DNA of 34,756 nt from an uncultured Candidatus Saccharibacteria bacterium (GCA_964453715.1 CAYVQX010000002.1:1-34756); one strand, 5' to 3'; counted from the first letter of the stretch, positions 1,344 to 33,338 are shown. Numbers and translations are program-made. The notes: generated by a model from the letters alone, not told the origin.

Positions 1344-1352
1344 ATGCTAGCA
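1344..1352 (-). promoter_or_regulatory. Extended -10 (TGc-TAGCAT on the minus strand), 7 nt upstream of the SET gene ATG
   Basis: The minus strand reads cTGcTAGCATttaaaaaATG. There is no SD. Fits the leaderless pattern seen across the window. Confidence 0.35.
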
Positions 1353-1355
1353 GAG

Positions 1356-1385
1356 TTGGCAAAAATGAGCCAATAGTCGTATAGT
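1356..1385 (+). promoter_or_regulatory. rsmA promoter candidate: TTGGCA - 18 nt - TATAGT, then 6 nt to the ATG (leaderless)
   Basis: TTGGCA at 1356-1361, TATAGT at 1380-1385, ATG at 1392. No purine-rich SD in between (gcccat). Confidence 0.45.
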
Positions 1386-1391
1386 GCCCAT

Positions 1392-2147
1392 ATGGAGGTT
1401 AAAGCTAAAAAGTCGCTGGGGCAAAATTGGCTCAAAAATGAGCAAATTGTAAGGGAGATTGCCGCGGCCGCTAAAATTACCAAAAAAGATAAGGTCTTGG
1501 AGGTTGGCCCCGGTCAGGGAGTTTTAACTCGGGCCTTATTAGACTTAGGTGCCAATGTAGTGGCGGTGGAGAAGGATGATCGCTTAATTGATATTTTAAA
1601 ACAAAAATTTAGTTTAGAGATTATGAGTGATAAGTTAGAGATTATCCATCACGATATTTTAGACTTTGACCCAATTTTAATAAATCAAAAATATAAAGTG
1701 GTGGCCAACTTGCCTTACTATATTACCGGCGAGTTTATAAAAAAGTTTTTAACCACCCCCAATCAACCCGAGTTAATGGTGCTGATGCTACAAAAGGAGG
1801 TCGCCGAGCGCGTAGCTAAAGACAAAAAGGGGAGTGTGCTCGCTATGAGTGTTAAGGTTTATGGCGAGCCTAAATATTTACGCACAGTCTCGCGTGGCAA
1901 TTTTGAGCCAGCGCCTAAAGTAGATTCAGCTGTATTAGTGATAGAAAATATTTCTAAAAATTTATTCACTAAATATAAAATTAGTGAGAAGGAGTTTTTT
2001 AATACCTTAAAAAAAGGTTTTGGTAGTAAGCGTAAAAAGTTAAAAAATAATTTAAAACTAGCTGGTGAGTTATTGGCTAAGTATGGCGATAAACGACCAG
2101 AGGATTTACAATTAGAGGATTGGTTAAATATATGCGCGAACAATTAA
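1392..2147 (+). CDS. rsmA: 16S rRNA (adenine1518/1519-N6)-dimethyltransferase RsmA/KsgA
   Basis: KKSLGQNWL N-terminal motif, SAM motif VLEVGPGQGVLT, NLPYYIT motif. Size 251 aa. Confidence 0.9.
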   Translation: MEVKAKKSLGQNWLKNEQIVREIAAAAKITKKDKVLEVGPGQGVLTRALLDLGANVVAVEKDDRLIDILKQKFSLEIMSDKLEIIHHDILDFDPILINQKYKVVANLPYYITGEFIKKFLTTPNQPELMVLMLQKEVAERVAKDKKGSVLAMSVKVYGEPKYLRTVSRGNFEPAPKVDSAVLVIENISKNLFTKYKISEKEFFNTLKKGFGSKRKKLKNNLKLAGELLAKYGDKRPEDLQLEDWLNICANN

Positions 2148-2686
2148 AAACTTTATTTTTAGGTGTTTTAATCTTAGTTTTAGTCGGCTTTAGCGCCGCC
2201 TTTTATCAAGCCCTTAATAAAACCATCCCCGAGTTACGGCCTAAAGCCTTAATTGAGCCCCCATTAGAGCAGGTGGTAAGTGAGCCTAATGAGGCAACAA
2301 GTACCGAGCCAATCTTAAAAAGTAATCAAATTAGCGTTAGTGTAGGCACTACTACCTTAATTTTAGATCTAGCCACCACTAGCGCTGCGAGGACACAAGG
2401 CCTATCTGGTCGTAAAAGCTTGGCCGCCAACGCTGGCATGCTCTTTGTGTTTGAAAAAGCTGGTTTATACGGCTTTTGGATGAAGGAGATGAACTTCCCA
2501 TTAGATTTTATTTGGTTAGACAGTAACGGTAAGGTAATAGATATCACTAAAGGGGTGCCAGCCAACTCTTATCCTAAAGCTTTTTACCCCTCGGATCCGG
2601 CCAAATATGTTATTGAGGTCAATGCTGGCTGGGCCAATTTAAACAATCTAGAGATAGGTGACACCCTACAACCCCTTGATTTTTAA
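2132..2686 (+). CDS. DUF192-family protein with N-terminal signal/TM segment
   Basis: GLSGRKSL...GMLFVF...GFWMKEMNFPLDFIWLD matches the DUF192 signature. ATG 2132 is preferred over TTG 2120 (GAGGA at 2115-2119). Overlaps the rsmA 3' end. Confidence 0.75.
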   Translation: MREQLKTLFLGVLILVLVGFSAAFYQALNKTIPELRPKALIEPPLEQVVSEPNEATSTEPILKSNQISVSVGTTTLILDLATTSAARTQGLSGRKSLAANAGMLFVFEKAGLYGFWMKEMNFPLDFIWLDSNGKVIDITKGVPANSYPKAFYPSDPAKYVIEVNAGWANLNNLEIGDTLQPLDF

Positions 2687-2701
2687 GGCTTTTTTAAGCT
2701 T

Positions 2702-3070
2702 TTAGAGTCCCGACGAGCCAATCATCCTAATAATTCCACCTGGTACTGGCTCGGGGATCGCGCAGGGGATGAAACTAACCAATTTTTGGCAGGTAGCCAC
2801 TCCAAAAGCCGTGCCTAAAACCCACGGCCCAGGGGTAAAAATATTAAAATAAGGGTACAAAGTGGAGACTCCAGGCACATAGAGGAAAATGCCCGCCTTA
2901 GGTGGCCCAACGGTAATTTTGACCCCATTACAACAAATCTCACTTAATATAATCTTCCCACCAATTAAATTGGTAAGTCCAGGCACTTGGGCCCTAGCCG
3001 CAGTTGGGATTGAAAACAGTAATCCAAGGAGTAAAAATGGCGCTAAATATCTAGTAGTAATAGCCAACAT
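2702..3070 (-). CDS. Small secreted protein, 122 aa, 4 Cys in the mature part, no recognised family
   Basis: Signal peptide MLAITTRYLAPFLLLGLLFSIPTAARA/QV. Mature part is G/P-rich with CC...C...C. Has its own -10 box 6 nt upstream of the ATG. Divergent from the T4SS-like operon. Confidence 0.55.
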   Translation of the reverse strand: MLAITTRYLAPFLLLGLLFSIPTAARAQVPGLTNLIGGKIILSEICCNGVKITVGPPKAGIFLYVPGVSTLYPYFNIFTPGPWVLGTAFGVATCQKLVSFIPCAIPEPVPGGIIRMIGSSGL

Positions 3071-3076
3071 TTAATC

Positions 3077-3105
3077 AGTATAAACAATATTATTCTTATC
3101 CACAA
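3077..3105 (-). promoter_or_regulatory. Promoter candidate for 2702-3070: TTGTGG - 17 nt - TATACT - 6 nt - ATG (minus strand)
   Basis: The minus strand reads TTGTGGataagaataatattgtt TATACT gattaa ATG. The -35-like hexamer overlaps the TGTGGATAA 9-mer. Confidence 0.4.
3096..3104 (+). promoter_or_regulatory. Perfect DnaA-box consensus 9-mer TTATCCACA in the divergent intergenic region
   Basis: Exact match read directly from the sequence. It lies 26 nt from the ATG of 2702-3070 and 60 nt from the ATG of the T4SS-like operon. The function is not established. Confidence 0.35.
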
Positions 3106-3146
3106 AAAATAAAGTAATTTAAAGCTAAAAACTGGCCTAATTAAGG

Positions 3147-3152
3147 TATAAT
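3147..3152 (+). promoter_or_regulatory. -10 box TATAAT, 11 nt upstream of the first ATG of the T4SS-like operon
   Basis: ggTATAATaaagccataaaATG. No convincing -35 and no SD. Confidence 0.4.
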
Positions 3153-3163
3153 AAAGCCATAAA

Positions 3164-3910: not shown

Positions 3911-3913
3911 CCT

Positions 3914-6904: not shown

Positions 6905-6905
6905 T

Positions 6906-9191: not shown

Positions 9192-9194
9192 ATT

Positions 9195-9686: not shown

Positions 9687-9720
9687 GTTAATTTATATGA
9701 TATTATGTGGCTAAGAAAAT

Positions 9721-10137: not shown

Positions 10138-10139
10138 AT

Positions 10140-10784: not shown

Positions 10785-10785
10785 T

Positions 10786-12612: not shown

Positions 12613-12614
12613 AC

Positions 12615-13085
12615 ATGGACGACATTAAAAAACCAAAAACAAAAGATGAAGACCGAGGCCCAAAAGATAAAGATGGTGATAAGGTAATTAATGGAAATGA
12701 CCCTAAGCAGGAGCCGCCACAACCTAAAAAATTAATTGGCACTAGTTTTTGGATAATGTTGTTTATTGTTATTATTAAAGATTTAATAGATGTAGTGGCT
12801 GATTTTTCAGTTGTTTTTTCAGTAATTGCTCCAATTACCGGCTTTATTGTAACGCTAATCTTATGGTTTTATTATTACTTAAGTGGAGTTAAAGCTTCAA
12901 CTAAAACTGTTTCGACTTTTGTTATTACCAGTATAATTGGATTAATCCCTTTTATTAATTTACTACCAGAGACAGCCTTAAACCTTATTTTAACTAGGAC
13001 GTTTGAGAATAATCAGAAACTTCAAAGAGTTGCTAAATTAGTTTCAGTTAAAAGTACTGCCAAATCAGCAATTGAAGCGGTATAA
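12615..13085 (+). CDS. Small polytopic membrane protein, 156 aa, with a K/D-rich N-terminus
   Basis: ~45 aa charged N-terminus, then 3-4 hydrophobic segments (FWIMLFIVIIKDLIDVVADFSVVFSVIAPITGFIVTLILWFYYYL..., FVITSIIGLIPFINLL). No family recognised. Confidence 0.6.
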   Translation: MDDIKKPKTKDEDRGPKDKDGDKVINGNDPKQEPPQPKKLIGTSFWIMLFIVIIKDLIDVVADFSVVFSVIAPITGFIVTLILWFYYYLSGVKASTKTVSTFVITSIIGLIPFINLLPETALNLILTRTFENNQKLQRVAKLVSVKSTAKSAIEAV

Positions 13086-13092
13086 TTAAATT

Positions 13093-14079
13093 ATGGTTAA
13101 ATTACTGAAGATTTTAATATTATTAACAATTATCTTAACCTCCTTTAGAATTTTTGCTTTTACTGAAAATACTGTGGGTGGGAATGTTTATAGCCAAGTT
13201 TTACCAAATGACCCATCACCAAACCAGGATGTATCTATTAACTTAACTAGTTATGATTTTAATCTTGATTTAAGTCAAATAGTTTGGACTATAAATAATC
13301 AAATCGTGGCAAGTGGTTTAGGTTTAAAAAAAATAAATTTTAAACTAGGGAATCAAAATTCACCATCTATAGTAAATGTTTCAATTGTTAGTCCATTAGG
13401 ACAAAGAGTCTTAAAAACTTTCAATTTTAATCCCGGAACAGTTGATTTATTATGGCAAGCAAACACTTATACTCCTAGTTTTTATCAAGGCAAATCTCTA
13501 CCATCATTAGGTAGTACTATAAAACTACTAGCTATACCAAATATTACTGATGGACAAAAAAATAAGATTCCAGATTCAAGGTTAGTTTTTAATTGGTATA
13601 AAAATGACAAATTATTAAGTGAATCATCTGGTATTGGCAAAAATACAACTGATATTAAATTAGATAACATTATTAGCCAAACAAATATTAAGGTCAATGT
13701 TTCATCCTTAACTGGTAATAGCGCCGTTGGCAGTACTACTATTAGGGTCGTTAATCCTCAAGTAATTTTCTACCCCAACAATTCCAGTTCGACTATTTAT
13801 AGCGCTCTAGGAAACGTTATAAGTGGTGGCTCTGTGGTTAATATAATTGCTGAACCATATTATTTTTCATTAGATGACTTAATCAACCAGTCAATAATAT
13901 TCCAGTGGCTAAGCGGTAATAAAATAATATCTAATACCCCCAACTTATACTTAGACAACAATAGGCCAAATTCACTACCCTTAACCCTTGTAGTTTCAAA
14001 CCAAAATTCAATTCTACAAAAGGTATCTAAAGATGTTACAATTCTATTAAATCCAAATGATAACAGCGCGGGATTTTAG
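13093..14079 (+). CDS. Secreted protein, 328 aa, with three internal beta-rich repeats
   Basis: Signal peptide MVKLLKILILLTIILTSFRIFA. A recurring module is marked by IVWTINNQIVASG / LVFNWYKNDKLLSES / IIFQWLSGNKIISNT, each followed by ...V(N/S)VS(I/S)... strands. Confidence 0.6.
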   Translation: MVKLLKILILLTIILTSFRIFAFTENTVGGNVYSQVLPNDPSPNQDVSINLTSYDFNLDLSQIVWTINNQIVASGLGLKKINFKLGNQNSPSIVNVSIVSPLGQRVLKTFNFNPGTVDLLWQANTYTPSFYQGKSLPSLGSTIKLLAIPNITDGQKNKIPDSRLVFNWYKNDKLLSESSGIGKNTTDIKLDNIISQTNIKVNVSSLTGNSAVGSTTIRVVNPQVIFYPNNSSSTIYSALGNVISGGSVVNIIAEPYYFSLDDLINQSIIFQWLSGNKIISNTPNLYLDNNRPNSLPLTLVVSNQNSILQKVSKDVTILLNPNDNSAGF

Positions 14080-14965: not shown

Positions 14966-14975
14966 ATAAAAGTTT

Positions 14976-17109: not shown

Positions 17110-17244
17110 TTAAACAGCCAACTTAGCGCGCCCTTTTTGGCGACGCCGTTTTAGGACCCTTTGGCCGTTTTTACTCTTAGAACGGACCAAGAAACCGTGG
17201 GTTTTGGCGCGTTTACGCTTTTTAGGCTGGTAGGTTACAGACAT
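17110..17244 (-). CDS. rpmH: 50S ribosomal protein L34 (44 aa; absent from the supplied ORF track)
   Basis: Hand translation of the minus strand gives [44 protein letters not shown], the classical L34 sequence. ATG at 17244-17242, TAA at 17112-17110. Confidence 0.93.
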
Positions 17245-17251
17245 TGAGATG

Positions 17252-17279
17252 ATTATAGCCTTTATTGTAAAAACTGCAA
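17252..17279 (-). promoter_or_regulatory. rpmH promoter candidate: TTGCAG - 16 nt - TATAAT - 7 nt - ATG (leaderless)
   Basis: The minus strand reads TTGCAGtttttacaataaaggc TATAAT catctca ATG. Confidence 0.5.
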
Positions 17280-17334: not shown

Positions 17335-17363
17335 TTGATAACCTACCCCCTAAAGCCTATAAT
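17335..17363 (+). promoter_or_regulatory. dnaA promoter candidate: TTGATA - 17 nt - TATAAT - 7 nt - ATG (leaderless)
   Basis: TTGATA at 17335-17340, TATAAT at 17358-17363, ATG at 17371. The promoter lies inside the ORF-track N-terminal extension, which argues for the 17371 start. Confidence 0.6.
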
Positions 17364-17370
17364 GAGGCCC

Positions 17371-18726: not shown

Positions 18727-18906
18727 ATAGTGGATAAAAATAAAAAATATTTTATGAACTACTACTTATTAACAAATAAAATTATAAATATCCCCAATTT
18801 AAATTTTAAAAAATCTTTTAATTATAAAGATATTATTAACTTATCCAGTTAATCACATACTATTATTCTTATTATTCTCTATTTATAAATAAATAATATA
18901 TACCTT
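18727..18906. other. Candidate oriC / DNA-unwinding region between dnaA and dnaN
   Basis: 180 nt with 26 G+C by hand count (~14%). DnaA-box-like AGTGGATAA at 18729-18737 (8/9) and TTATCCAGT at 18841-18849 (7/9). Tandem 9-mer TATTATTCT x2 at 18861-18878. Classical rpmH|dnaA-dnaN context. Confidence 0.5.
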
Positions 18907-20010
18907 ATGAAAATAGAATGTTTAATAAATAAAATAAAACCATTAGTGATTGCTGCAGAGAAGGTGACTGCTAAAAATCATTCATTACCAGTTTTAAGTT
19001 TAATTGTTTTAGAAGCTTCTAATAATAACTTAAAAATTAAATCAACTAACCTAGAGGTTGGTTTAGAAGCTTTTTTACCAGTAAAAGTTATATCTCCTGG
19101 TCATTTAGCTGTTAATGCACAAGTTTTTAGTCAATTCCTTAATTTAAGTACTAAAAATGATGATAAATTAGAAATGGAATTAGTTGATAATAATTTAATT
19201 CTAAAAACTAGCCAATCAACTTCAACGTTAAAAACTTACCCTATAGATGATTTCCCAATCATTCCTAAAATAAAAAATGAGGAAGATTTAATTATTCCAC
19301 TAATAGATTTTATTACTGGGGTTAAATCGGTTATTTATGCTTCAGCTACCTCTGATATAAAACCAGAGATAGCTAGCGTTTTTATTTATCAAAAACAAGA
19401 TTATTTAGTTTTTGTGTCAACTGATTCATTTAGGTTGGCTGAAAAGAGTATTAAATATAGCTCTAATATATCTTTTCCTTCTTTAATTATCCCAATTAAA
19501 AATATCTCAGAGATATTAAGAGTTCTTGAAGATGAGAGTGGTGAATTAAAGATAAAAGCATCTGAAAATCAAATATCATTTTTAACTAATAACTTCCACC
19601 TCACTTCTAGGGTTATTAATAGTAACTTCCCTGATTATCAACAAATTATACCTAAAGACTTTAAAACAGAAATTGAGTTAGTTAAAGATGATTTTATTAA
19701 TAGTTTAAAATTATCTAATATTTTTAGCGATAAATTTAATCAAATTACCATTAAAACCACGGAATCACGAGATGGTTGTGAAATATACTCACATAATCAA
19801 GAGGTAGGGGATAATAAAACAATAATAAAAGCGGTTATTATAGGTAATGATATATCAGTAAACTTTAATTCTCGTTTTATCACTGATTCTTTAGGGTGTT
19901 TTACTGATAATAAGGTAAAACTATGTTTTAGTGATAAAAATCGCGCTACGCTTATTTTAGGCCTTAATAATAGTAGTTTTAAATACTTAGTAATGCCTGT
20001 TAATAGGTAA
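18907..20010 (+). CDS. dnaN: DNA polymerase III beta sliding clamp
   Basis: 367 aa, directly downstream of dnaA, with a three-domain-compatible length. The N-terminus (MKIECLINKIKPLVIAAEKV) and C-terminus (YLVMPVNR) fit the DnaN pattern (..MP.r). Confidence 0.85.
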   Translation: MKIECLINKIKPLVIAAEKVTAKNHSLPVLSLIVLEASNNNLKIKSTNLEVGLEAFLPVKVISPGHLAVNAQVFSQFLNLSTKNDDKLEMELVDNNLILKTSQSTSTLKTYPIDDFPIIPKIKNEEDLIIPLIDFITGVKSVIYASATSDIKPEIASVFIYQKQDYLVFVSTDSFRLAEKSIKYSSNISFPSLIIPIKNISEILRVLEDESGELKIKASENQISFLTNNFHLTSRVINSNFPDYQQIIPKDFKTEIELVKDDFINSLKLSNIFSDKFNQITIKTTESRDGCEIYSHNQEVGDNKTIIKAVIIGNDISVNFNSRFITDSLGCFTDNKVKLCFSDKNRATLILGLNNSSFKYLVMPVNR

Positions 20011-20012
20011 TA

Positions 20013-20261: not shown

Positions 20262-22727
20262 TTTTACCGTTTGATCACTATTATTTTTAATAGTATCTGA
20301 AATAACTACTCTAAAATCATTTTCACCAGGATTTATTGAATCTACAGGTAAATCTAAATTAATACTTGATGGTAAATTATTTAAACTTTTTATTAAGGTA
20401 TTATTTAAGTAAAAATCAGCCTTAGTAATAGGATTAACTGCTTTAGTTAAACTAAAACTTGCAGTTATTGGTTTTGTTAGGTCTAAAGTTTGTCCATCAG
20501 TAGGGTTAATAATTTTAAATTCTGGAGCTAAGCCAGGTAAGTGGATATTATCTGTTTCTTTAGGAATAATATCTGTAGTCTCGTTTTTGATATTATTATT
20601 GGCGGCCCACTGTAAAACTGGACCTTCCCATAATTTAAATTGAGGATCTGAACTTGGGTTTATTGGTACTGGACCAGTCGGGTTATTTTTGTTAATCCAG
20701 TATAAAATTGAGTGAACTTGCGTTACTACATGTTCCTCTTTTGTCTCATTAGGAGTGTAATCAGTTGCTAATTTTTTACTAATTGTGTCTATAAAGTAAT
20801 TTTGATTTCCCCTCCAAAAACCTCTTAAAACTGGTTTTAAATTAGGGTCGACTGGTGTTGGTTGGGGGAATGATTCTATTGGAGCATCTTTTAAATATTC
20901 CTTCATAAAAGCATTCCACATTGGGACGATAATAAATCCAGCAATTTGTTTATCCATTGGACTGTTGTCGTTATTTCCAGCCCAAGCGCCAACGGTAATA
21001 CTTGGTGTGTAACCCATTACCCAAGCGTCACGATAATCATTAGTAGTACCAGTTTTATCTGCTACATCTCTACCAGGGAAGTAAAGTGGAGAATTTAATC
21101 CAAAAGCTGGCGCCCTGGCATTATTATCACTTAAAACACTAGTGACCAAACGAGCAATATTACTATCTATTACAGGTTGAGGGTTAGCCTTCCATTCCTC
21201 TAAGGTTTGACCTTTAGAATCTTCAATCTTTAAAATACTACCGATATCATTTTTAACTCCATCATTAGCAAAAACAGAGTAAGCCCCAGTTAATTCTAAT
21301 GGCGTAACCTCACCACCACCTAATACTAAGGTTAACCCATAACGATTTTTATCAGTTAGAGTGGTAATACCAAAACGTTTAGCATTACTTAAAACATCAT
21401 TCAATCCGGCTAAGTATAAAATTTTAACAGCTGGGACGTTTCTAGATTGAGCTAAGGCGTTACGTAAACTAATTGGGCCTAAATATTTTCCGTCATAGTT
21501 TTCTGGTGTATAGCAATCTGGAGGACAATTGGTTGAGAATTGGGTTGGAACGTCAAAAAGGACAGTGTCAGGGGTGTATCCTTTTTGGAAGGCAGTAGCA
21601 TAAACAAATGGTTTAAAAGCAGAACCAGGCTGTCTTTTAGCTAGGGTAATATTAAAATTACCTTCATGATCTGTATCAAAATAATCTTTTGATCCAACCA
21701 TCACTAATATTTGGCCAGTTTTTGGATCAATTGCCACCATACCGGCATTTTTTGCATTATAGTTTTTAGCATTACTCTCAGCGTAAGTTTTTACAATTTC
21801 TTGAGCTTTTTCTTGTAATTTCCAATCTAAACTAGTTATAACTTTAAAACCTTGGGTCTCTACTGCCTCACGGCCATATTTGTTCTCTAAATATTGCAAG
21901 ACATAAAAAACAAAATGAGGCGCTTTGATACCGCTCTCGTCTAAAGGTTTAAACTCAACTTTCTCGGCTTTGGCTGAAGCTTCTTGATTGGCTGTAATAA
22001 AACCAAGTTCACGCATTCTTTTTAAAACTAGATTTTTACGATCATCTAATTTATCTTTATGGCTACCGTAAGGGGAATAGTAAGTTGGCGCTTGTGGTAA
22101 TGCAGCTAAATAAGCTGCTTCCGCCAAAGTTAGATCAGAAGCCTTTTTATTAAAAAAGGTTTGGGCGGCCTCTTGAATACCGTAAATACTTCCACCATAA
22201 GGTGTTTCATTTAAATAAAGAGCTAAGATGTCATCTTTCTTCATTGCTCGCTCTAATTTAATTGCCAACACCCACTCCTTAATCTTACGAGAAATAGTTT
22301 TATCCTTTGTAAGAAGTGTGTTTTTGATTACTTGTTGAGTGATAGTTGACCCACCTTGCTGTAATTCTCCAGTAATAATATTTATTAAAACTGCCCTTAA
22401 TGTGGCCAATGGCTCTACTCCATGATGTTGATAAAAGTTGGCATCTTCAATAGCAATAGACGCTTTTTTAGCATAATCAGAAATTTCATTTAAAGACACT
22501 ATAGTCCTTCTAACCTCACCGTGGACATCATAAAGTAAAACCTCACCAGTCCGATCGTAAATTTTAGTTGACTCGCTAATTGATTGCTCTTTAAAAAATG
22601 AGTCAAAATCAGGGATGTTTATAGTTGCCGCCCAAATAATTGAGAGACCAACAAAAAGGAAGCCAAGACCCCCTAAGATAAGGGTAGTTTTAATTAAGAA
22701 TAGGCGCCAAGGGCCGTTTTTACGCAT
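20241..22727 (-). CDS. Class A penicillin-binding protein (glycosyltransferase GT51 + transpeptidase) with a C-terminal extension, 828 aa
   Basis: N-terminal TM. GT51 motifs EDANFYQHHG, GGSTITQQ and RKIKE. Transpeptidase motifs SAFKP (SxxK), SRN (SxN) and KTGTT (KTG). Confidence 0.92.
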   Translation of the reverse strand: MRKNGPWRLFLIKTTLILGGLGFLFVGLSIIWAATINIPDFDSFFKEQSISESTKIYDRTGEVLLYDVHGEVRRTIVSLNEISDYAKKASIAIEDANFYQHHGVEPLATLRAVLINIITGELQQGGSTITQQVIKNTLLTKDKTISRKIKEWVLAIKLERAMKKDDILALYLNETPYGGSIYGIQEAAQTFFNKKASDLTLAEAAYLAALPQAPTYYSPYGSHKDKLDDRKNLVLKRMRELGFITANQEASAKAEKVEFKPLDESGIKAPHFVFYVLQYLENKYGREAVETQGFKVITSLDWKLQEKAQEIVKTYAESNAKNYNAKNAGMVAIDPKTGQILVMVGSKDYFDTDHEGNFNITLAKRQPGSAFKPFVYATAFQKGYTPDTVLFDVPTQFSTNCPPDCYTPENYDGKYLGPISLRNALAQSRNVPAVKILYLAGLNDVLSNAKRFGITTLTDKNRYGLTLVLGGGEVTPLELTGAYSVFANDGVKNDIGSILKIEDSKGQTLEEWKANPQPVIDSNIARLVTSVLSDNNARAPAFGLNSPLYFPGRDVADKTGTTNDYRDAWVMGYTPSITVGAWAGNNDNSPMDKQIAGFIIVPMWNAFMKEYLKDAPIESFPQPTPVDPNLKPVLRGFWRGNQNYFIDTISKKLATDYTPNETKEEHVVTQVHSILYWINKNNPTGPVPINPSSDPQFKLWEGPVLQWAANNNIKNETTDIIPKETDNIHLPGLAPEFKIINPTDGQTLDLTKPITASFSLTKAVNPITKADFYLNNTLIKSLNNLPSSINLDLPVDSINPGENDFRVVISDTIKNNSDQTVKLFNISN

Positions 22728-22738
22728 TAATGACCAAT

Positions 22739-22747
22739 ATTATATCA
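22739..22747 (-). promoter_or_regulatory. Extended -10 TGa-TATAAT (minus strand), 11 nt upstream of the PBP ATG
   Basis: The minus strand reads gaTGaTATAATattggtcattaATG. Confidence 0.5.
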
Positions 22748-22801
22748 TCTAGCTTACTTGGCAACTATGTGGTAAATTGCCGTTATCAACACTTTTATTT
22801 T

Positions 22802-23947
22802 ATGTCTAATATTTTAACTAGGGGGGTAGAAACAATTTTACCCAGTAAAGAGGCTTTATTGGAGCGATTAGATCAGGGTAAGATTAAACTTTATTTAGGT
22901 ATTGATGCAACAGGGCCGACTCTCCACTTAGGTCACTTAGTATCTTTGTTAAAATTGCGCGATTTTCAACAAGCTGGTCACGAGGTTGTTGTTTTGTGGG
23001 GGGATTTTACTAGCCGAATTGGTGATCCTACTGATAAATTAGCCGCCCGCCAAATTTTAACTCCTGATGAAGTAGAAAATAATTTAAAAGATTATCGCCG
23101 ACAGGTTTTATTAATTTTAGATGAGGACAAAACAACCTTCCGGCGTAATAGTGAGTGGTTTGATAGGATGTCAGCTCAAGACCTACTTACTTTAGCAACA
23201 GAGTTTACTGATAAGGATTTAACCGACCGAGATATGTTTGTAGAGAGAAAAAAGCAAGGTAAACCAGTTTATGCTAATGAGCTTTTCTACCCCTTGCTCC
23301 AAGGTTATGACAGTGTGGCCTTAGGTGTTGATTTAGAGGTTGGTGGTAATGACCAACTCTTTAATATGCTTTCTGGCCGTGATTTATTAGCTAAAAGAGG
23401 TAAGGAAAAATTTGTTTTAGCTAATAAATTACTAACCGATCCAACTGGTAAGAAGATGGGTAAAACTGAGGGCAATATGGCCAAATTAACTGACTCGGCT
23501 AATGATATTTTTGGCAAAATAATGAGTTGGCCAGATACCCTAACCCCCTTAGGTTTAGAGATCTTAACTAGGTTGCCAAAAGGGGAGTGTGAAGAACTTT
23601 TAGCCGGTCATCCTAAGGCGGCCAAATTAGCCTTAGCTCAAGCAGTGGTGAGTTTAATTTATGGCCCCGCGGCGGCCGGTGAGGCTAAGGATCAATTTGA
23701 GGCCACCTTCTCTAGTGGTGAAGCAACTATTGAACCAGTAGTTATAATTGCCGCCGCCGGGGCTAAATTAGCTGATGTTTTAGTGGTTGAGGGGCTAGTT
23801 AAATCTAAGTCTGAATTCCGCCGTTTAGTAGAGCAAAACGGGGTAGAAATTGAGGGGGAGAAATTGTCTGACCCAGACTACGAGATTTTAAGTGAGGTCA
23901 GTGGTCGTTTGGGGGCTCATCGATTTATTAAAATCAAATTACTATAA
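22802..23947 (+). CDS. tyrS: Tyrosyl-tRNA synthetase
   Basis: GIDATGPTLHLGHL (HIGH), GDFTSRIGDPT, KMGKT (KMSKS), C-terminal S4-like FRRLVEQNGVEIEGEKL. The start is set at MSNILTRG (22802) rather than 22730. Confidence 0.9.
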   Translation: MSNILTRGVETILPSKEALLERLDQGKIKLYLGIDATGPTLHLGHLVSLLKLRDFQQAGHEVVVLWGDFTSRIGDPTDKLAARQILTPDEVENNLKDYRRQVLLILDEDKTTFRRNSEWFDRMSAQDLLTLATEFTDKDLTDRDMFVERKKQGKPVYANELFYPLLQGYDSVALGVDLEVGGNDQLFNMLSGRDLLAKRGKEKFVLANKLLTDPTGKKMGKTEGNMAKLTDSANDIFGKIMSWPDTLTPLGLEILTRLPKGECEELLAGHPKAAKLALAQAVVSLIYGPAAAGEAKDQFEATFSSGEATIEPVVIIAAAGAKLADVLVVEGLVKSKSEFRRLVEQNGVEIEGEKLSDPDYEILSEVSGRLGAHRFIKIKLL

Positions 23948-24701: not shown

Positions 24702-25228
24702 GAGGCATTAGTGTAAATATTTTTAATATCATCGTGATCATCTAAGGCAGTTATTAAGTCACTTAATTTTTGATTATCCTCTGGAGAGATAGGTAAGGTA
24801 GAGTTGGGTGAGTAGCCTTCAGTAGTTTTAGTAAAAGCCCAAGCCGCACTACCTTGACCACCTAAATTGGCACCAAAGTCTGACAGCAAGTGTTTAATCT
24901 CTGGAGTGGTCCGGTTTTTATTATCGGTAATACCCTCAATAATCATTGCTACACCACCTGGGCCATAAGCCTCGTATAAAACCGCTTCATAAGCGGCGCC
25001 GCCTACGCCGGCGCCTCGAGCAATAGCCCGATCAATATTGTCGTTAGGCATATTAGCAGCCCGAGCCCGATCAATAGCACTCCGTAGACCGGGGTCATTT
25101 TTATCGCCCCCACAACGCTTAGCCTCCACAGCAATAGACTTACCAAGCATGGAGAAGATTTTGCTCCGCTTAGCATCCACGGCGCCCTTTTTGTGTTTAA
25201 TTTGTGTCCATTTATTATGTCCCGCCAT
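24698..25228 (-). CDS. yebC: YebC/PmpR (TACO1) family protein, compact 176-aa version
   Basis: MAGHNKWTQIKHKKGAVDAKRSKIF..., YEAYGPGGVAMIIEGITDNKNRT. The start is set at MAGHNKW (25228). The ORF-track extension to 25318 would overlap ruvB. Confidence 0.85.
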   Translation of the reverse strand: MAGHNKWTQIKHKKGAVDAKRSKIFSMLGKSIAVEAKRCGGDKNDPGLRSAIDRARAANMPNDNIDRAIARGAGVGGAAYEAVLYEAYGPGGVAMIIEGITDNKNRTTPEIKHLLSDFGANLGGQGSAAWAFTKTTEGYSPNSTLPISPEDNQKLSDLITALDDHDDIKNIYTNAS

Positions 25229-25238
25229 AAAATATAAT

Positions 25239-26240
25239 CTACAATAATGAACCTTGTTTGTCTTTTGGCAACTCGCGACCAAGGTGGAAGTAAGCTTTAG
25301 GGGTAGCCACTCGGCCACGGGGTGTTCGTTCTAGGAATCCAAGTTGGATTAAATAGGGTTCATAAACTTCCTCCACTGTGGCCTCTTCCTCGTGGGTGGC
25401 AGTAGCTAGGGTAGAGAGGCCTACTGGTCCACCCGCAAATTTATCAATTAAAACCTCTAAGACGGCCCGATCACTCTTGGTTAGGCCTACTTCATCAATC
25501 CCGAGTAAATTAATAGCCTCCCGCACATTTTGAGGACTAATTGCTTCTTTTTTAACTTGAGCTAAGTCGCGACAACGTTTTAAAAGATGGTTAGCAATAC
25601 GAGGTGTAAAGCGACTGCGTTTAGCAATCTCCCTTAAACCATCAAGGGTTACCTCAATGTTTAAAATTTTGGCCGAGCGATCTAAGATTTTTATTAAATC
25701 CTCTTCAGTGTAAAAATCTAATTTAAAAGTTCCACCCGAGAAACGAGAGCGGAGCGGGGAGGAGAGGAGTGCTACTCTAGTGGTGGCGGCAATTAAGGTA
25801 AAAGGTGGTAAGGCTAATTCAATAACTCGAGCGCCGGGCCCTTTACCTAAAATAATATTTAAACTCCCAGCCTCCATGGCAGGGTAAAGAACCTCCTCCA
25901 CCGCTTTATTTAAACGATGAATCTCATCAATAAACAAAACATCGCCAGCTTGGAGGTTGGTAATAATTGAGGCAAGGTCGCCAACCTTCTCAATTGTTGG
26001 GCCAGAAGTATTTTTTAAATTAACCCCCATCTCTTTAGCAATTAAGTGGGCGAGAGTGGTCTTACCTAAGCCAGGCGGACCGTAAAATAAGAGGTGTTCT
26101 GGCGGGTGGTTGCGCTCCTTAGCGGCCTTTAGTAAGATGGACAGGTTGTTTTTTATCGCTGCTTGACCAACATACTCCTCCCACCCGCTCGGGCGGAGGG
26201 AAGAATCGAGGAAACTATCTTCAGGGCGATTGCTTGACAT
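25239..26240 (-). CDS. ruvB: Holliday junction branch migration ATPase RuvB
   Basis: LLFYGPPGLGKTTLA (Walker A), VLFIDEIHRL (Walker B), ATTRVALLSSPLRSRF (sensor region). 333 aa. Confidence 0.95.
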   Translation of the reverse strand: MSSNRPEDSFLDSSLRPSGWEEYVGQAAIKNNLSILLKAAKERNHPPEHLLFYGPPGLGKTTLAHLIAKEMGVNLKNTSGPTIEKVGDLASIITNLQAGDVLFIDEIHRLNKAVEEVLYPAMEAGSLNIILGKGPGARVIELALPPFTLIAATTRVALLSSPLRSRFSGGTFKLDFYTEEDLIKILDRSAKILNIEVTLDGLREIAKRSRFTPRIANHLLKRCRDLAQVKKEAISPQNVREAINLLGIDEVGLTKSDRAVLEVLIDKFAGGPVGLSTLATATHEEEATVEEVYEPYLIQLGFLERTPRGRVATPKAYFHLGRELPKDKQGSLL

Positions 26241-26247: not shown

Positions 26248-26275
26248 ATTTTATGCTAGTATCTGCAAAGATCAA
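26248..26275 (-). promoter_or_regulatory. ruvB promoter candidate: TTGATC - 16 nt - TAAAAT - 7 nt - ATG (leaderless)
   Basis: The minus strand reads TTGATCtttgcagatactagca TAAAAT agattat ATG. The -35 hexamer is the outermost 6 nt of the inverted-repeat element. Confidence 0.45.
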
Positions 26276-26452: not shown

Positions 26453-28144
26453 CTAAATTATCTCTTGGTTCAAATCAACTACGCGAGCGACTTCATCTAA
26501 ACTTGTTTCTCCTTGCAATACTTTAATTATACCATCCTGCCTCATGTCGAGGATATTTTGCGGTTTAGCCGCAATTTTTATTTCTCGCTCGCTAGGGTTA
26601 TTTATGGCTACATTAGCTACAGCCTCGTCCATTAAAATAGCCTCAAACAAACCCTCGCGCCCCTTGTAGCCGGTGTTATTGCACTTAGGGCAACCCACCG
26701 CCCGATAAATTTTGCCAGTTTGTGGTGGGACTAAGTCGGGGCGCTTAGTTTTAATACTGGCCACCACTGCTTTAATTAGTCTATCCTCATCAGGTTGCAA
26801 GGTATCCTCCTTTTTACAATAAACACAAAGTTTACGGACTAAGCGTTGAGCAATAGAGATATTAAGCGCCGAGCTCATAATTTTAGGATTTATACCTAAA
26901 TCAATTAAGCGGGGGATAGTACCGGCGGCATCATTGGTGTGGAGGGTAGAGAAAACCAAGTGGCCAGTTAAAGATGAGTTAATGGCAATCTTAGCCGTTT
27001 CCGAGTCGCGGATCTCGCCAACCATAATAATGTCTGGGTCTTGGCGTAAAGCGCTACGCAAACCAGAGAGGAAGGTGTAACCCTTACTAGGATTAGTTTG
27101 GGTTTGATTTATCCCGGCCAAGTGATACTCAATTGGATCCTCAATCGTGATAATTTTATTTTCTGACGTGCTAACCTCACGGAGGAAGGCGTAAAGAGTA
27201 GTTGTTTTACCCGAGCCAGTTGGACCAGTTAGTAAGATAACACCATTTGGCTTGCGGATCTCTTGGTCAAAAATCTTAAGCAATGAAGCTTCTACACCTA
27301 AGGTTTTAAAGGTGAGCTTAATTGTCTCAGGGTTTAAAACTCGGAGTACAATAGACTCGCCATAAGCGCCGGGTAAAATACTCGTTCTAATCTCCATCTC
27401 AATACCACCAACTTTAATCGAGAAGCGACCATCTTGCGCCGCTTGCTTAATGTTTAACTTTAAACCAGAGACTAATTTAATCCGTGAGAGGATCGGCTGA
27501 TAAACTCGTCGGTCTAAATTGGCTACATCCTCCAAAACGCCGTCTAAGCGATAACGTAAACGGATAACCTCCTCCTCTGGCTCGAGGTGAATATCTGAAG
27601 CATCGGTAACCAAGGCGCCAGCGAGGAAGGTCTCTACGATCCCAGTGATGCCACCACCTTTTAAAGTTAACTCCGCCTGCTTAGCGATCTCGTCTTGAAC
27701 ATCACTAAGCGTCTTCATGGTTTTTAACTGCTCGGTAATGGTCTCGTTGGAGATATCAATAACGCCAATATCGGTGGGCGCAGAGTTTATAATCTCGGCG
27801 TAACGCTCCCAAGCGTGCTTTAAGCTGGTAACCGAGCAAACATAGAGATTAACTTTAAAGTTTTTATTCTCTAAGTCGGCAATAATCTCTTTAACAGCGT
27901 CACTGGTGGGAGATAAAGCGGCTAAATATAACTCCTTACCCTTAACACGGAAGAGGGCAATGTTAGCAGCGCGCGCCTCAACCTCAGGGATTAAACGTAA
28001 AGCGTCGGTGTTGATAGGGGTTTTTGAAAGATCAAGATAGGGCCGGCCGTATTTGGCGGCTAAAATCTCCGCCAACTCCTCCGCCTCTTTTAAATGTAAA
28101 TCAGAGAGTTGTTTATCAGACTTATCTTCATTGAAGTTGATCAT
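26453..28144 (-). CDS. pilB: GspE/PilB-family secretion ATPase (type IV pilus assembly ATPase-like), 563 aa
   Basis: N-terminal GSPII_E-type domain, Walker A LLTGPTGSGKTTTLY, IITIEDPIE, DPDIIMVGEIRD, GHLVFSTLHTN, and a tetra-Cys motif CVYCKK...CPKCNNTGYKGREGLFE. Confidence 0.9.
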   Translation of the reverse strand: MINFNEDKSDKQLSDLHLKEAEELAEILAAKYGRPYLDLSKTPINTDALRLIPEVEARAANIALFRVKGKELYLAALSPTSDAVKEIIADLENKNFKVNLYVCSVTSLKHAWERYAEIINSAPTDIGVIDISNETITEQLKTMKTLSDVQDEIAKQAELTLKGGGITGIVETFLAGALVTDASDIHLEPEEEVIRLRYRLDGVLEDVANLDRRVYQPILSRIKLVSGLKLNIKQAAQDGRFSIKVGGIEMEIRTSILPGAYGESIVLRVLNPETIKLTFKTLGVEASLLKIFDQEIRKPNGVILLTGPTGSGKTTTLYAFLREVSTSENKIITIEDPIEYHLAGINQTQTNPSKGYTFLSGLRSALRQDPDIIMVGEIRDSETAKIAINSSLTGHLVFSTLHTNDAAGTIPRLIDLGINPKIMSSALNISIAQRLVRKLCVYCKKEDTLQPDEDRLIKAVVASIKTKRPDLVPPQTGKIYRAVGCPKCNNTGYKGREGLFEAILMDEAVANVAINNPSEREIKIAAKPQNILDMRQDGIIKVLQGETSLDEVARVVDLNQEII

Positions 28145-28151
28145 CCCTTAC

Positions 28152-28157
28152 AGTTTA
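28152..28157 (-). promoter_or_regulatory. -10-like TAAACT (minus strand), 7 nt upstream of the pilB ATG
   Basis: The minus strand reads cTAAACTgtaagggATG. A weak TTGTTT lies 17 nt upstream. Confidence 0.35.
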
Positions 28158-28219: not shown

Positions 28220-28228
28220 TTATCCACA
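28220..28228 (+). promoter_or_regulatory. Perfect TTATCCACA 9-mer in the pilB / lipoprotein divergent intergenic region
   Basis: Exact match read from the sequence. The function is not established. Confidence 0.35.
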
Positions 28229-28280: not shown

Positions 28281-28309
28281 TTGACAAAATAACAGTTTAG
28301 GTGTATAAT
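28281..28309 (+). promoter_or_regulatory. Perfect sigma70 consensus promoter TTGACA - 17 nt - TATAAT
   Basis: TTGACA at 28281-28286, TATAAT at 28304-28309. Followed by a ~70-nt leader and the SD AAGGGAG (28368-28374), 7 nt before ATG 28382. Confidence 0.65.
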
Positions 28310-28381
28310 ATAAGTAGTAGAGTATAGATGGACCTTGGTAAAAATGGCCCAAATAGGGCTAAAAATAAGGGAGAATGTAGA

Positions 28382-28861: not shown

Positions 28862-28875
28862 GCGCGGGCGCCCTC

Positions 28876-28914
28876 AATCGCTAGCTTGGGTCTCCCAGGC
28901 TAGCGATTTTTTTT
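28876..28914 (+). terminator. Strong intrinsic terminator
   Basis: AATCGCTAGCTTGGG tct CCCAGGCTAGCGATT forms a 15-bp stem (one G-U pair) followed by a run of 8 T. A second 8-bp palindrome GCCCGCGC taa GCGCGGGC spans the stop codon (28851-28869). Confidence 0.8.
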
Positions 28915-28915
28915 A

Positions 28916-28924
28916 TGTTAAACT
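28916..28924 (+). promoter_or_regulatory. Extended -10 TGt-TAAACT, 7 nt upstream of the tsaE ATG
   Basis: aTGtTAAACTagccctaATG. Confidence 0.45.
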
Positions 28925-28931
28925 AGCCCTA

Positions 28932-29375
28932 ATGCAAGTAACCACCCATTCTCCTGAAGAGACGGCCGATTTGGCGGCGGAGGTACTCCGTCGCTTAGGG
29001 TGCGGTACACGAGCTAGAGTTTTAGGTCTCCGTGGCGATTTAGGTGCGGGTAAAACCACCTTCACTCAAAGTTTGGCCAAGTCTTTAGGTGTAACTGAAG
29101 TGGTTACCAGTCCAACTTTTATTATTGAGAAGGTTTATCAACTAGCCTCTAACGCTCCTTTTCATCATCTTGTTCATGTTGATGCTTATCGTTTAGAATC
29201 ACCGGCCGAGTTGGCCCATTTAGGTTTTGATGATTTGTTGGCCGATACTGGTAATTTAATTGTGGTGGAGTGGCCCGAGCGGGTAGAGGAGTTATTACCA
29301 CCAGAGACAATTTATTTTGACTTTGAGTTTATTGATGATCATACTCGCCAAATTACTTATGAAGAGCGCCACTAA
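28932..29375 (+). CDS. tsaE: tRNA t6A37 biosynthesis ATPase TsaE (YjeE)
   Basis: LRGDLGAGKTTFTQ (P-loop), SPTFII, HVDAYRL. 147 aa. Confidence 0.88.
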   Translation: MQVTTHSPEETADLAAEVLRRLGCGTRARVLGLRGDLGAGKTTFTQSLAKSLGVTEVVTSPTFIIEKVYQLASNAPFHHLVHVDAYRLESPAELAHLGFDDLLADTGNLIVVEWPERVEELLPPETIYFDFEFIDDHTRQITYEERH

Positions 29376-31704: not shown

Positions 31705-31708
31705 CCTG

Positions 31709-31717
31709 TGCTACAAT
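31709..31717 (+). promoter_or_regulatory. Extended -10 TGc-TACAAT, 9 nt upstream of the ATG at 31727
   Basis: cTGcTACAATaagcccactATG. Confidence 0.45.
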
Positions 31718-31726
31718 AAGCCCACT

Positions 31727-32518
31727 ATGGCATTTGTTAAATCGGGACCAGTGCGGAAGTCTAACCTTTTTGACCCAAAGTCTAAGGAGCCGTTTAAGCT
31801 CTCGCGGACCAAGTTGGAGGATTTTATGCGTTGTCCACGCTGTTTTTATATTGACCGGCGATTGGGTATTGGTAAACCCTCAACTCCACCCTTCTCGCTT
31901 AATGCGGCAGTGGATTTACTCTTAAAAAAGGAGTTTGATGTCCATCGCGCGGCTGGTACTCCACATCCGTTTATGGCTCATTATAAAATTGAGGCTATAC
32001 CGTTTAAACATAAAAACATGGATGTTTGGCGAGAGAACTTTGTGGGTGTGCAATATTTACATCCCGAGTCTAACTTTTTATTTTTTGGCGCCGTTGATGA
32101 TATTTGGGAAAATAAAAATGGTGAATTAATTGTGGTGGATTATAAAGCTACCGCTAAAGATGGGGGAGTTACTTTAGATGCTGAGTGGCAAGATAGTTAT
32201 AAACGCCAAATGGAGATTTATCAGTGGTTGTTAACTAAAAATGGTTTTAAAGTTTCTGACACTGGTTACTTTGTTTATGTTAATGGTAAGCGCGATGCTA
32301 AAGCTTTTGACGGTAAGCTAGAGTTTGAGATTAAACTAATTCCTTACACTGGTAAAAATGATTGGGTAGCAGAAAAATTAATTGAAGCTAAAAAATGTTT
32401 AATTAATGACGAGTTGCCGACCGCTGACTCGGCTTGTGAGTATTGTCAGTATCGTGCCGCCGCCCAACTTAAGGAGACACCACCAAAAAGCGCACATAGT
32501 CAGGCCACATTGTTTTAA
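31727..32518 (+). CDS. PD-(D/E)XK nuclease, Cas4/RecB-like, with N- and C-terminal Cys pairs
   Basis: CPRCFY near the N-terminus and CEYCQY near the C-terminus (Fe-S-type ligands). Core GAVDDIW...VVDYKAT (D...DxK) and QMEIYQWLL (QxxxY). Confidence 0.7.
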   Translation: MAFVKSGPVRKSNLFDPKSKEPFKLSRTKLEDFMRCPRCFYIDRRLGIGKPSTPPFSLNAAVDLLLKKEFDVHRAAGTPHPFMAHYKIEAIPFKHKNMDVWRENFVGVQYLHPESNFLFFGAVDDIWENKNGELIVVDYKATAKDGGVTLDAEWQDSYKRQMEIYQWLLTKNGFKVSDTGYFVYVNGKRDAKAFDGKLEFEIKLIPYTGKNDWVAEKLIEAKKCLINDELPTADSACEYCQYRAAAQLKETPPKSAHSQATLF

Positions 32519-32520
32519 TT

Positions 32521-32529
32521 TTATCCACA
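32521..32529 (+). promoter_or_regulatory. Perfect TTATCCACA 9-mer, 3 nt after the nuclease stop codon
   Basis: Exact match. It lies 12 nt upstream of a TTGATT (32541-32546) - 17 nt - TATGAT (32564-32569) promoter-like pair. Confidence 0.35.
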
Positions 32530-32628
32530 CGGCATTAAACTTGATTTTTTGGGCTTTGCCGGCTATGATTTAAGGGTAATTAGTTTTAGGCAAAGGTCGA
32601 GACTTAATTTTCCCATTCAATAAAGTTC

Positions 32629-32784
32629 ATGAAAAATACTATTATTGCGATCGTGGTCATTGTTGTGTTAGTTGCTGGCTACCTTTGGTGGTCTAAGAGC
32701 GCTAGCGCTCCTGCTGCGACCGACACTATGACCGGTACCGCTCCGGCTGGCGACACTATGCCGGCAACCGGCGCGACTAACTAA
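32629..32784 (+). CDS. Possible 51-aa membrane-anchored peptide (not in the ORF track)
   Basis: MKNTIIAIVVIVVLVAGYLWWSKSASAPAATDTMTGTAPAGDTMPATGATN has one TM helix and an A/T/P/G tail with a duplicated DTM(T/P) unit. It is followed by a terminator. No SD. Confidence 0.35.
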   Translation: MKNTIIAIVVIVVLVAGYLWWSKSASAPAATDTMTGTAPAGDTMPATGATN

Positions 32785-32808
32785 CTTTAAGTTTAGTCTC
32801 ACCAGCTA

Positions 32809-32838
32809 AAAACCCACCCGCTTAGGCCGGTGGGTTTT
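32809..32838 (+). terminator. Intrinsic terminator candidate
   Basis: aaAACCCACCCGC ttag GCCGGTGGGTTtt. A ~10-bp stem with one C:C mismatch, followed by TTTT. Confidence 0.6.
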
Positions 32839-32855
32839 GGCGTTTATGGGGAGGG

Positions 32856-32864
32856 TGTTAGAAT
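32856..32864 (+). promoter_or_regulatory. Extended -10 TGt-TAGAAT, 6 nt upstream of the mgtC ATG (leaderless)
   Basis: gTGtTAGAATaaagttATG. Confidence 0.5.
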
Positions 32865-32870
32865 AAAGTT

Positions 32871-33338
32871 ATGTCATTTTTAACTCTTATTTTTGGTCCG
32901 TTCTTACCTTACTCTGATGCTGTGATTCGTTTAGCGGTGGCTATGGTTTTGGGCGCAGTGGTAGGCACAGAGAGAACCTTAGCTCACCGTCGAGCAGGGA
33001 TGAGGACTTATGCACTTGTTTCTGTGGGGGCAGCCGCTTTTGTAGTAATTGGCGAGATTGTAAGACAAATTTACGGCGAGACGGGGATTGACCCACTCCG
33101 TATTGCCTCACAAATTGTGATGGGTATTGGTTTTTTGGGTGCGGGTTTAATTATTGTCCGTGGGACGCAAATTAATGGTTTAACCACGGCGGCTGGTTTA
33201 TGGGTGGCGGCTACTATTGGCACATCGGCCGGTTTTGGACTTTACCCCTTGGCAGCTATTATTGCGATGATTACTTTGTTTGTGTTTGTCGTTTTGCGGG
33301 GAGTGGAGCAGGAGGTCAAGGATCATCAGGTAGAGTAG
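32871..33338 (+). CDS. mgtC: MgtC/SapB-family membrane protein
   Basis: RLAVAMVLGAVVGTERTLAHRRAGMRTYALVSVGAAAF matches the MgtC N-terminal signature. Has 4-5 TM segments. 155 aa. Confidence 0.85.
   Translation: MSFLTLIFGPFLPYSDAVIRLAVAMVLGAVVGTERTLAHRRAGMRTYALVSVGAAAFVVIGEIVRQIYGETGIDPLRIASQIVMGIGFLGAGLIIVRGTQINGLTTAAGLWVAATIGTSAGFGLYPLAAIIAMITLFVFVVLRGVEQEVKDHQVE

Follow-up and report, generated by a model that had tools for sequence, protein, structure and literature searches.

The 34.8-kb stretch of DNA analysed here at its full length (the window), in which genes are densely packed at 27–47% G+C, raised the question of how expression starts on genes whose ATG is closely preceded by a hexamer resembling a −10 promoter box and by no evident Shine−Dalgarno (SD) motif. 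Based on all analyses, it was considered probable that the first cistrons of transcription units in this Parcubacteria lineage are leaderless, SD-free and directly abutted by their promoters. The 5′ ends of the transcripts and the mode of ribosome recruitment on which this reading depends are those that we infer from the DNA sequence.

A start codon was taken as first in its unit when the gene was divergent from its upstream neighbour, was separated from it by a gap of at least 22 nucleotides (nt), or followed a terminator, and 16 starts in the window were of this kind. TANNNT was present at a spacer of 6–7 nt from the ATG in ten of them (62%), namely SET, rsmA, orf2702, rpmH, dnaA, dnaN, ruvB, pilB, tsaE and mgtC. 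Three further units, those of the nuclease, the penicillin-binding protein (PBP) and the first gene of the type IV secretion system (T4SS) operon, had the hexamer at a spacer of 9–11 nt, and the last three were orf28328 (18 nt from the ATG), tyrS and prgI. When all ATGs were taken as the background, TANNNT-N6/7-ATG was recorded at 52 of 798 (6.5%), compared to which the ten of 16 unit starts gave a binomial p = 8e-9. At the other offsets of the same upstream regions TANNNT occurred at 5.4% per position, and the excess at spacers 6–7 had p = 7e-7. The recurrence of hexamers at a set distance from starts, which had been noticed in the original prediction, was confirmed. All 13 hexamer, spacer and ATG strings listed there were found at the expected coordinates, including the longer spacings for the nuclease (9), the PBP (11) and the T4SS operon (11), and dnaN (TAATAT-7-ATG), which was missing from that table, fits the pattern as well. 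The hexamers were also specific to first genes. With an automated gene call, which took the first ATG of long open reading frames (ORFs), TANNNT at 6–7 nt preceded 8 of 14 first genes (57%) versus 2 of 17 operon-internal genes (12%).

The promoter and start features, gene by gene, were the following (aa, amino acids).

Minus strand, SET-domain gene: TTGGCT (1373..1368), 18 nt, TGcTAGCAT (1352..1344), 7 nt, ATG (1336..1334).
Plus strand, rsmA/ksgA: TTGGCA (1356-1361), 18 nt, TATAGT (1380-1385), 6 nt, ATG (1392-1394).
3082..3068, minus strand, orf2702-3070 (122 aa, without a Pfam match): TATACT, 6 nt, ATG.
Plus strand, first gene of the T4SS operon: TATAAT (3147-3152), 11 nt, ATG (3164-3166); predicted leader of ~4 nt.
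13057..13095, plus strand, candidate promoter inside the T4SS operon: CTGCCA, 18 nt, TATAAT (13081-13086), 6 nt, ATG (13093).
17242..17257, minus strand, rpmH: TATAAT, 7 nt, ATG (17244..17242).
17335..17373, plus strand, dnaA: TTGATA, 17 nt, TATAAT (17358-17363), 7 nt, ATG (17371).
18894..18909, plus strand, dnaN: TAATAT, 7 nt, ATG (18907).
22725..22747, minus strand, PBP1 (class A): TGaTATAAT (22747..22739), 11 nt, ATG (22727..22725).
22770..22804, plus strand, tyrS: TGgTAAATT (22770-22778), 23 nt, ATG (22802); predicted SD-free leader of ~16 nt.
25226..25241, minus strand, yebC: TAGATT, 7 nt, ATG (25228).
Minus strand, ruvB: TTGATC (26275..26270), TAGCAT (26258..26253, spacer 12), TAAAAT (26253..26248, spacer 7), ATG (26240..26238).
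28142..28157, minus strand, pilB: TAAACT, 7 nt, ATG (28144..28142).
28281..28330, plus strand, orf28328: TTGACA-17-TATAAT (28281-28309), 18 nt, ATG (28328); predicted leader of ~11 nt without SD.
28876..28934, plus strand, tsaE: TGtTAAACT (28916-28924), 7 nt, ATG (28932).
31709..31729, plus strand, PD-(D/E)XK nuclease: TGcTACAAT, 9 nt, ATG (31727).
32837..32873, plus strand, mgtC: TTGGCG, 16 nt (TGt included), TGtTAGAAT (32856-32864), 6 nt, ATG (32871).

An in-frame stop precedes the SET ATG with no other possible start in between, and the 55-nt gap between the divergent SET and rsmA genes (1337-1391) is filled by two symmetric back-to-back −35/−10 pairs. The dnaA promoter matches 11 of 12 consensus positions. 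Among the ten cases that of dnaN is the weakest, because its upstream region is very AT-rich. The promoter of orf28328 (177 aa, no Pfam match) is perfect at 12 of 12 consensus positions and the gene is followed by a terminator with a 15-bp stem (28876-28908); this gene is probably among the most strongly expressed in the window. The terminator hairpin and T-tract (28876-28915) directly abut the TGtTAAACT of tsaE, therefore no space is left there for an upstream promoter or a leader. A leaderless promoter inside the T4SS operon is possible at 13057..13095, its status being uncertain because the site lies 7 nt past the stop codon of the upstream gene. Two structural features were also recorded: the −35 elements of SET (TTGGCT, minus) and rsmA (TTGGCA, plus) form an inverted repeat, TTGGCAAAAATGAGCCAA, and at 3156-3168 the start codon of the first T4SS gene lies within a 5-bp hairpin, GCCATAAAATGGC, which may be a chance occurrence.

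The promoter character of the hexamers was investigated in a pooled set of the window and 29 related Parcubacteria-group loci (~600 kb), using a strict −10 hexamer defined as TANNNT in which NNN differs from TAA at no more than one position. Strict hexamers before first genes, as called crudely in the relatives (first ATG of long ORFs), numbered 19 at spacer 6 and 12 at spacer 7 over a background of 2.76 per offset (Poisson p = 1e-10 and 3e-5, respectively). At the same spacing, only 0.5% of the ATGs within gene bodies had a strict hexamer. The extended −10 element TGn preceded 32 of the 87 hexamers at spacers 6–8 (37%) compared to 5.7% of all TANNNT (p = 4e-18), and TTG was found 16–18 nt upstream, at the −35 position, in 17% of the cases over a background of 6.7%. 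Positions 4 and 5 of the hexamer favour A, as in TATAAT, and the sigma-70 invariants T1, A2 and T6 are kept.

Further, a promoter-first scan was performed that started from TGnTAnnnT sites and was independent of annotation and gene starts. The ATGs opening ORFs of at least 80 codons peaked at spacer 6 (29) and spacer 7 (17), with 7–12 at each of the spacers 8–12 and ~3 at other offsets, when the ATGs opening no ORF gave a flat profile. No peak was observed when four loci from outside the candidate phyla radiation (CPR) were processed in the same way. By these measures the hexamers behave as sigma-70-type promoter elements and not as a translation signal. In 49 bacteria the positions at which transcription starts are centred 7 bp past the −10 element (PMC12641261), therefore a spacer of 6–7 nt would put +1 on or beside the A of the ATG. 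A T at −1 was considered as the pyrimidine(−1)/purine(+1) signature of a transcription start and was rejected, as internal genes share T(−1) and the ten window cases are mixed.

The SD motif was scored as GGAG, GAGG or AGGA within −18..−4. In the window it preceded none of 14 first genes and one of 17 internal genes, and in the 30 loci together it was found before 0–7% of genes (0–6% of internal genes), when the same pipeline gave 41% and 69% for the non-CPR control loci. The near-absence of SD motifs noticed earlier thus held for 31 window genes with a single exception. G made up only 5–10% of the bases at −13..−1, A ~50% at −5..−3 and T 54–59% at −1, in first and internal genes alike. Neighbours on the same strand were mostly 1–10 nt apart or overlapped by 1 or 4 nt. 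The mean folding energy of the 40 nt around starts was −1.9 kcal/mol versus −4.35 kcal/mol in gene bodies, and that of the first 40 nt of the leaderless candidates was −3.0 kcal/mol. Such weak folding and tight spacing are the picture expected for reinitiation and for initiation at unstructured starts.

The value of these distances depends on the start codons. In the ORFs of SET, rsmA, orf2702, dnaN, ruvB, pilB, tsaE and mgtC no start codon is possible ahead of the ATG used here, and these ATGs match independent gene calls on contigs of the same species, with the exception of tsaE, whose called length differs among such contigs (134, 147 or 180 aa). Pfam matches begin at residue 4 of rsmA (RrnaAD), at residue 6 of tsaE (TsaE), within a few residues of the N-terminus for dnaA and yebC, counted from the chosen starts, and at residues 13–32 for dnaN, ruvB, SET and pilB.

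For dnaA, 30 orthologues align from the ATG at 17371 (M-x-D-x-K-x-L-W) and the sequences upstream are unrelated, while the rival ATG at 17362, located inside TATAAT, reads ATA in the 94%-identical locus L007. Hence the start was placed at 17371, as had been predicted. The proposed yebC start at 25228 was likewise upheld by orthologues that begin M-S/A-G-H-N-K-W at the aligned ATG. The listing of yebC as a first-in-unit gene was not: the gene lies 10 nt after ruvB and its TAGATT begins with the ruvB stop codon TAG (25241-25239), so that it is second in its unit. The TAAAAT at 7 nt from ruvB is present, but relatives conserve TAGCAT at spacer 12 (26258..26253), therefore the ruvB transcript would be leaderless or carry a leader of ~5 nt.

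The tyrS start at 22802 gives the N-terminus MSNILTRGVE, which fits TyrS, and one independent call on the same species is 381 aa long. The true start is thus probably 22802 and not 22730, to judge from the encoded N-terminus. With this start, PBP and tyrS diverge across 74 nt, a gap that holds TGaTATAAT and TGgTAAATT on opposite strands. The longer version from 22730 would leave only 2 nt between the two start codons and place each promoter inside the other gene. In the independent calls the starts of dnaA and tyrS are set too far upstream, by 9 nt (within the −10 box of dnaA itself) and 72 nt, respectively.

The spacing was conserved for some genes across relatives. The best −10 element of rpmH was at spacer 6–8 in 18 of 27 related loci and at 6–12 in 23 of 27, the promoter frequently being TTGnCA-17-TGtAGACT, and pilB orthologues had TACAAT or TATACT at spacer 7–8 in eight of ten loci. 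Both genes keep their spacing despite sequence divergence. The PBP orthologues had their best −10 element at spacer 6–12 in 11 of 14 loci. A −10 of its own at 6–7 nt precedes yebC in many relatives, and ruvB conserves (TGt)TAGCAT at spacer 12, an element that the window shares. The TATAAT of dnaA is nearly always present in relatives, at spacers ranging from 6 to 35 nt.

A number of results weighed against leaderless first cistrons as the rule. The dnaA gene is of the leaderless type only in the window, L007 and a few other loci. Its spacer is 15–35 nt in most relatives, with C/A/T-rich leaders lacking SD, hence the arrangement is evolutionarily labile. The hexamer was located at spacer 6–7 before only ~25–28% of the first genes of relatives, and the per-locus share with a hexamer at 6–8 ranged from 0 to ~70%, about a third overall. 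The claim that most units are leaderless therefore stood for the window, where the ten of 16 unit starts suggest it, but did not extend to the relatives. Some excess of TANNNT at 6–7 nt (15–19%) was also seen before operon-internal genes, partly because TAA and TAG stop codons supply the TA. The bare pattern TANNNT-N6/7-ATG showed no excess across the whole window (21 + 31 = 52, with ~56 expected from shuffles). As a test this count is uninformative, since it equals the chance expectation; the non-random feature is the location of the matches, not their number. Generic promoter and terminator scans of the window likewise gave counts no higher than in shuffles. Finally, the RNA runs searched for the window and for a relative from the Rifle aquifer gave no match, and no transcripts were placed when three groundwater metatranscriptomes were compared with the relative L013.

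Alternative explanations were weighed against these data. Promoters are needed within the gaps of the divergent pairs SET/rsmA (55 nt), orf2702/T4SS (93 nt), rpmH/dnaA (126 nt) and PBP/tyrS, and tsaE stands directly behind a strong terminator. It is therefore unlikely that the genes are carried on longer read-through transcripts or transcribed from promoters farther upstream, with the ATGs serving as internal SD-independent starts and the hexamers being weak, secondary or unused, even though SD-free internal initiation works in this lineage (the genes are tightly spaced and the internal ones lack SD), convincing intrinsic terminators are few, terminator-like sites are no commoner than in shuffles, and the same genes can be leadered in relatives, as is dnaA. 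The enrichment of TGn and the first-gene specificity argue for selection on functional promoters.

The same two features bear on a second proposal, in which the A/T-rich hexamer would serve the translation of a leadered mRNA, as a non-SD ribosome-binding motif or enhancer similar to that of Bacteroidetes (GeneMarkS-2 'group B'). The A-rich, G-poor context and the frequent T(−1) are indeed common to first and internal genes, and the latter show the mild TANNNT excess at 6–7 nt. However, a ribosome-binding motif would not be expected to keep the sigma-70 invariants, to carry TGn in 37% of the cases and TTG at −35 above background, or to be concentrated at first genes of the window as it is, and the intergenic gaps are too short for another promoter plus leader, which makes this proposal even less probable than read-through. 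Least credible of all is that AT-rich DNA produced the pattern by chance and that start codons were picked to fit it, since, despite the whole-window count and the existence of alternative starts for dnaA, yebC and tyrS, the enrichment is offset-specific in the window (p = 7e-7) and in the relatives (p = 1e-10), the promoter-first test is independent of start choice, and the starts are backed by orthologues and independent gene calls.

We proposed that leaderless, promoter-abutting first cistrons would operate as follows. In a genome without SD pairing, transcription would proceed from sigma-70-type promoters, often of the extended −10 type (TGnTAnnnT) and with weak −35 elements. RNA polymerase would start ~7 nt past the −10 element, so that the transcript would begin at the A of the ATG or a few nt from it. 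First cistrons would thus be leaderless in 10 of the 16 units and near-leaderless, with leaders of ~2–5 nt, in three more, and the 5′-terminal AUG would be recognised directly by ribosomes carrying the initiator tRNA. The remaining units would have short (~10–20 nt), G-poor, unstructured and SD-free leaders. Downstream cistrons, which lie 1–10 nt after the preceding stop codon or overlap it, would presumably be translated by termination-reinitiation in an A-rich, G-poor and weakly folded context.

A stronger version of this proposal was entertained only tentatively, its chances being put at somewhat less than even. In this version the lineage has fully dropped the SD/anti-SD interaction and retains two routes only, the 5′-terminal AUG on leaderless first cistrons and termination-reinitiation downstream. 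The loss of anti-SD, bS21 and uL1 has been reported for parts of the Parcubacteria/CPR group.

The 3′ end of 16S rRNA was sought in 44 loci and none was found in them. A search of metagenome sequence for 16S tails in which GGATNA is not followed by C yielded mainly eukaryotic 18S sequences and CAUCUCC/UAUCUCC variants, and the wastewater contigs aligned on 16S were a mixture of hundreds of fragments. Degenerate 16S tails were found on two contigs with Patescibacteria-like flanking genes, L057 (GGAUUAUCCCUUUU) and L125 (GGAUUAUCGCCUUUCU), and were rejected as the anti-SD of the source organism, as these contigs are not of this lineage.

Some observations on these 16S genes were made in their own right. 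Contig L057 (regions 2436-3900 and 4269-12067) carries a complete 16S gene with the tail GGAUUAUCCCUUUU, which lacks CCUCC. Its genes are SD-free yet apparently leadered (A/C-rich), for example with TATAAT 33 nt before an ATG; therefore SD-free CPR lineages vary in leaderlessness. Among the 16S 3′ ends of L056, L057, L059, L080, L105, L112, L125, L130 and L135 the anti-SD core varies (CUCC, CCC, CGCC, CUCU), and the first bases of the downstream spacer co-vary complementarily with it in these nine (GGAG, GGG, GGC, AGAG). Such covariation suggests that the 16S tail and the beginning of the internal transcribed spacer form a conserved hairpin.

The source organism, an uncultured ultra-small bacterium, was treated as a Parcubacteria-group CPR bacterium near 'Candidatus Vogelbacteria' on the basis of its DnaA sequence. 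Among species-representative genomes, the nearest named relatives of this DnaA were metagenome-assembled genomes (MAGs) of 'Candidatus Paceibacterota' (82% identity) and 'Candidatus Vogelbacteria' (66–69%), whose NCBI lineage is Patescibacteria group; Parcubacteria group. The closest DnaA match (94%) and several others were labelled 'Saccharibacteria'. Many TPA MAGs with a Vogelbacteria/Paceibacterota-like DnaA (L007, L012, L015 and others) are titled 'uncultured Candidatus Saccharibacteria bacterium', and this title is probably a generic placeholder and not a real classification. Wastewater and activated-sludge metagenomes contain the same sequence as the window.

Scans of the window for rRNA, tRNA and Rfam families gave no match. 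The gene content, as obtained from gene calls and Pfam, was the following.

One part of the window: the 3′ end of uvrD, the SET-domain gene, rsmA and a DUF192 gene.
3164-16076, plus strand: monoderm-type type IV secretion operon (PrgI, VirB4/TraG-like ATPase).
yidC-rnpA-rpmH, facing dnaA-dnaN.
Class A PBP gene, facing tyrS.
ruvB-yebC-ruvC, pilB, the 177-aa ORF and tsaE-polA.
PD-(D/E)XK nuclease, mgtC, uracil-DNA glycosylase and endo/exonuclease-phosphatase genes.

Between 18000 and 22000 the G+C content is low (27–32%); dnaN lies in this stretch together with the gap that separates it from dnaA, an ORF of 82 aa and the 3′ portion of the PBP gene. The dnaA-dnaN spacer (180 nt) is extremely AT-rich and may hold the replication origin; it contains DnaA boxes with one mismatch only. 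Exact DnaA-box 9-mers, TTATCCACA, occur five times in the window, at 3096-3104, 7417-7425, 24231-24239, 28220-28228 and 32521-32529, with 0.37 expected. Three of the five are intergenic or in promoter regions (orf2702/T4SS, pilB/orf28328 and after the nuclease gene), and they are not clustered beside dnaA. From these scattered boxes, DnaA may act as a transcription regulator in a regulator-poor genome.

Leaderless genes of bacteria are characterised by a −10 element 6–8 nt from the start (GeneMarkS-2 group C; PMC6028130). Mycobacterium, Streptomyces and Deinococcus (PMC6028130, PMC3898074, PMC4633059) resemble the present lineage in having a Pribnow box 6–8 nt before first-in-operon starts and leaderless first genes without SD in a sizeable share of units. 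Members of that group, however, have GC-rich genomes with many GTG starts and an intact anti-SD, and their leadered and internal genes carry SD. Here no gene class has SD, all leaderless candidates in the window start with ATG, the window has 27–47% G+C, and an extended −10 element is frequent among the promoters.

Tsurumaki et al. 2022 (PMC9297842) detected the anti-SD motif in just 48% of the Parcubacteria and proposed that no SD helices are formed there, and a 2024 survey in PLoS One (PMC10783764) described Campbellbacteria and Wolfebacteria as SD-scarce and without CCUCC. The organisms of these studies belong to the same broad lineage, and SD preceded 2–7% of genes there as compared to 0–7% here. 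Unlike the present analysis, the two studies covered the rRNA tail and SD pairing only, not the promoter-to-start distance. The word 'leaderless' is absent from PMC9297842, and PMC10783764 applies it to archaea and some other bacteria, not to CPR.

Bacteroidetes and Flavobacteriia (group B; PMC3155529) are similar in their scarcity of SD and in an A-rich, G-poor, weakly structured region before the start, but their mRNAs are leadered and the motif precedes first and internal genes alike, whereas in the present lineage the element next to the ATG is a sigma-70 −10 box and is specific to first genes. In leaderless-dominated archaea (Haloferax, Sulfolobus; group D) and in mammalian mitochondria most first cistrons are leaderless and SD plays little or no role. 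The archaea differ in their TATA/BRE (B recognition element) promoters at about −26 and in their archaeal or eukaryote-like initiation factors, and the leaderless mRNAs of mammalian mitochondria arise by processing, not by promoter placement.

In the full-text literature no paper was found that describes a leaderless organisation in any CPR lineage, although the coverage was incomplete and this is an absence of evidence only. The SD-free half of the present reading is thus already published for the wider group, and the leaderless half is a known bacterial mode that was not found described for CPR.

If transcript mapping confirms these predictions, the Parcubacteria would have to be counted among the leaderless-rich groups, next to Actinobacteria, Deinococcus and archaea. 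They would also be the clearest bacterial case of leaderless first cistrons alongside a complete lack of SD. Gene finders that expect a ribosome-binding site will misplace starts in these genomes, and expression cassettes meant for those few CPR bacteria that can be cultured should have a −10 element placed against the ATG in preference to a ribosome-binding site. The lineage would serve as a natural system for start-codon selection by a reduced ribosome without anti-SD. Should the regime of only two initiation routes be true, bacterial gene expression would here be convergent with that of haloarchaea and mitochondria, perhaps in connection with the reduced CPR ribosome.

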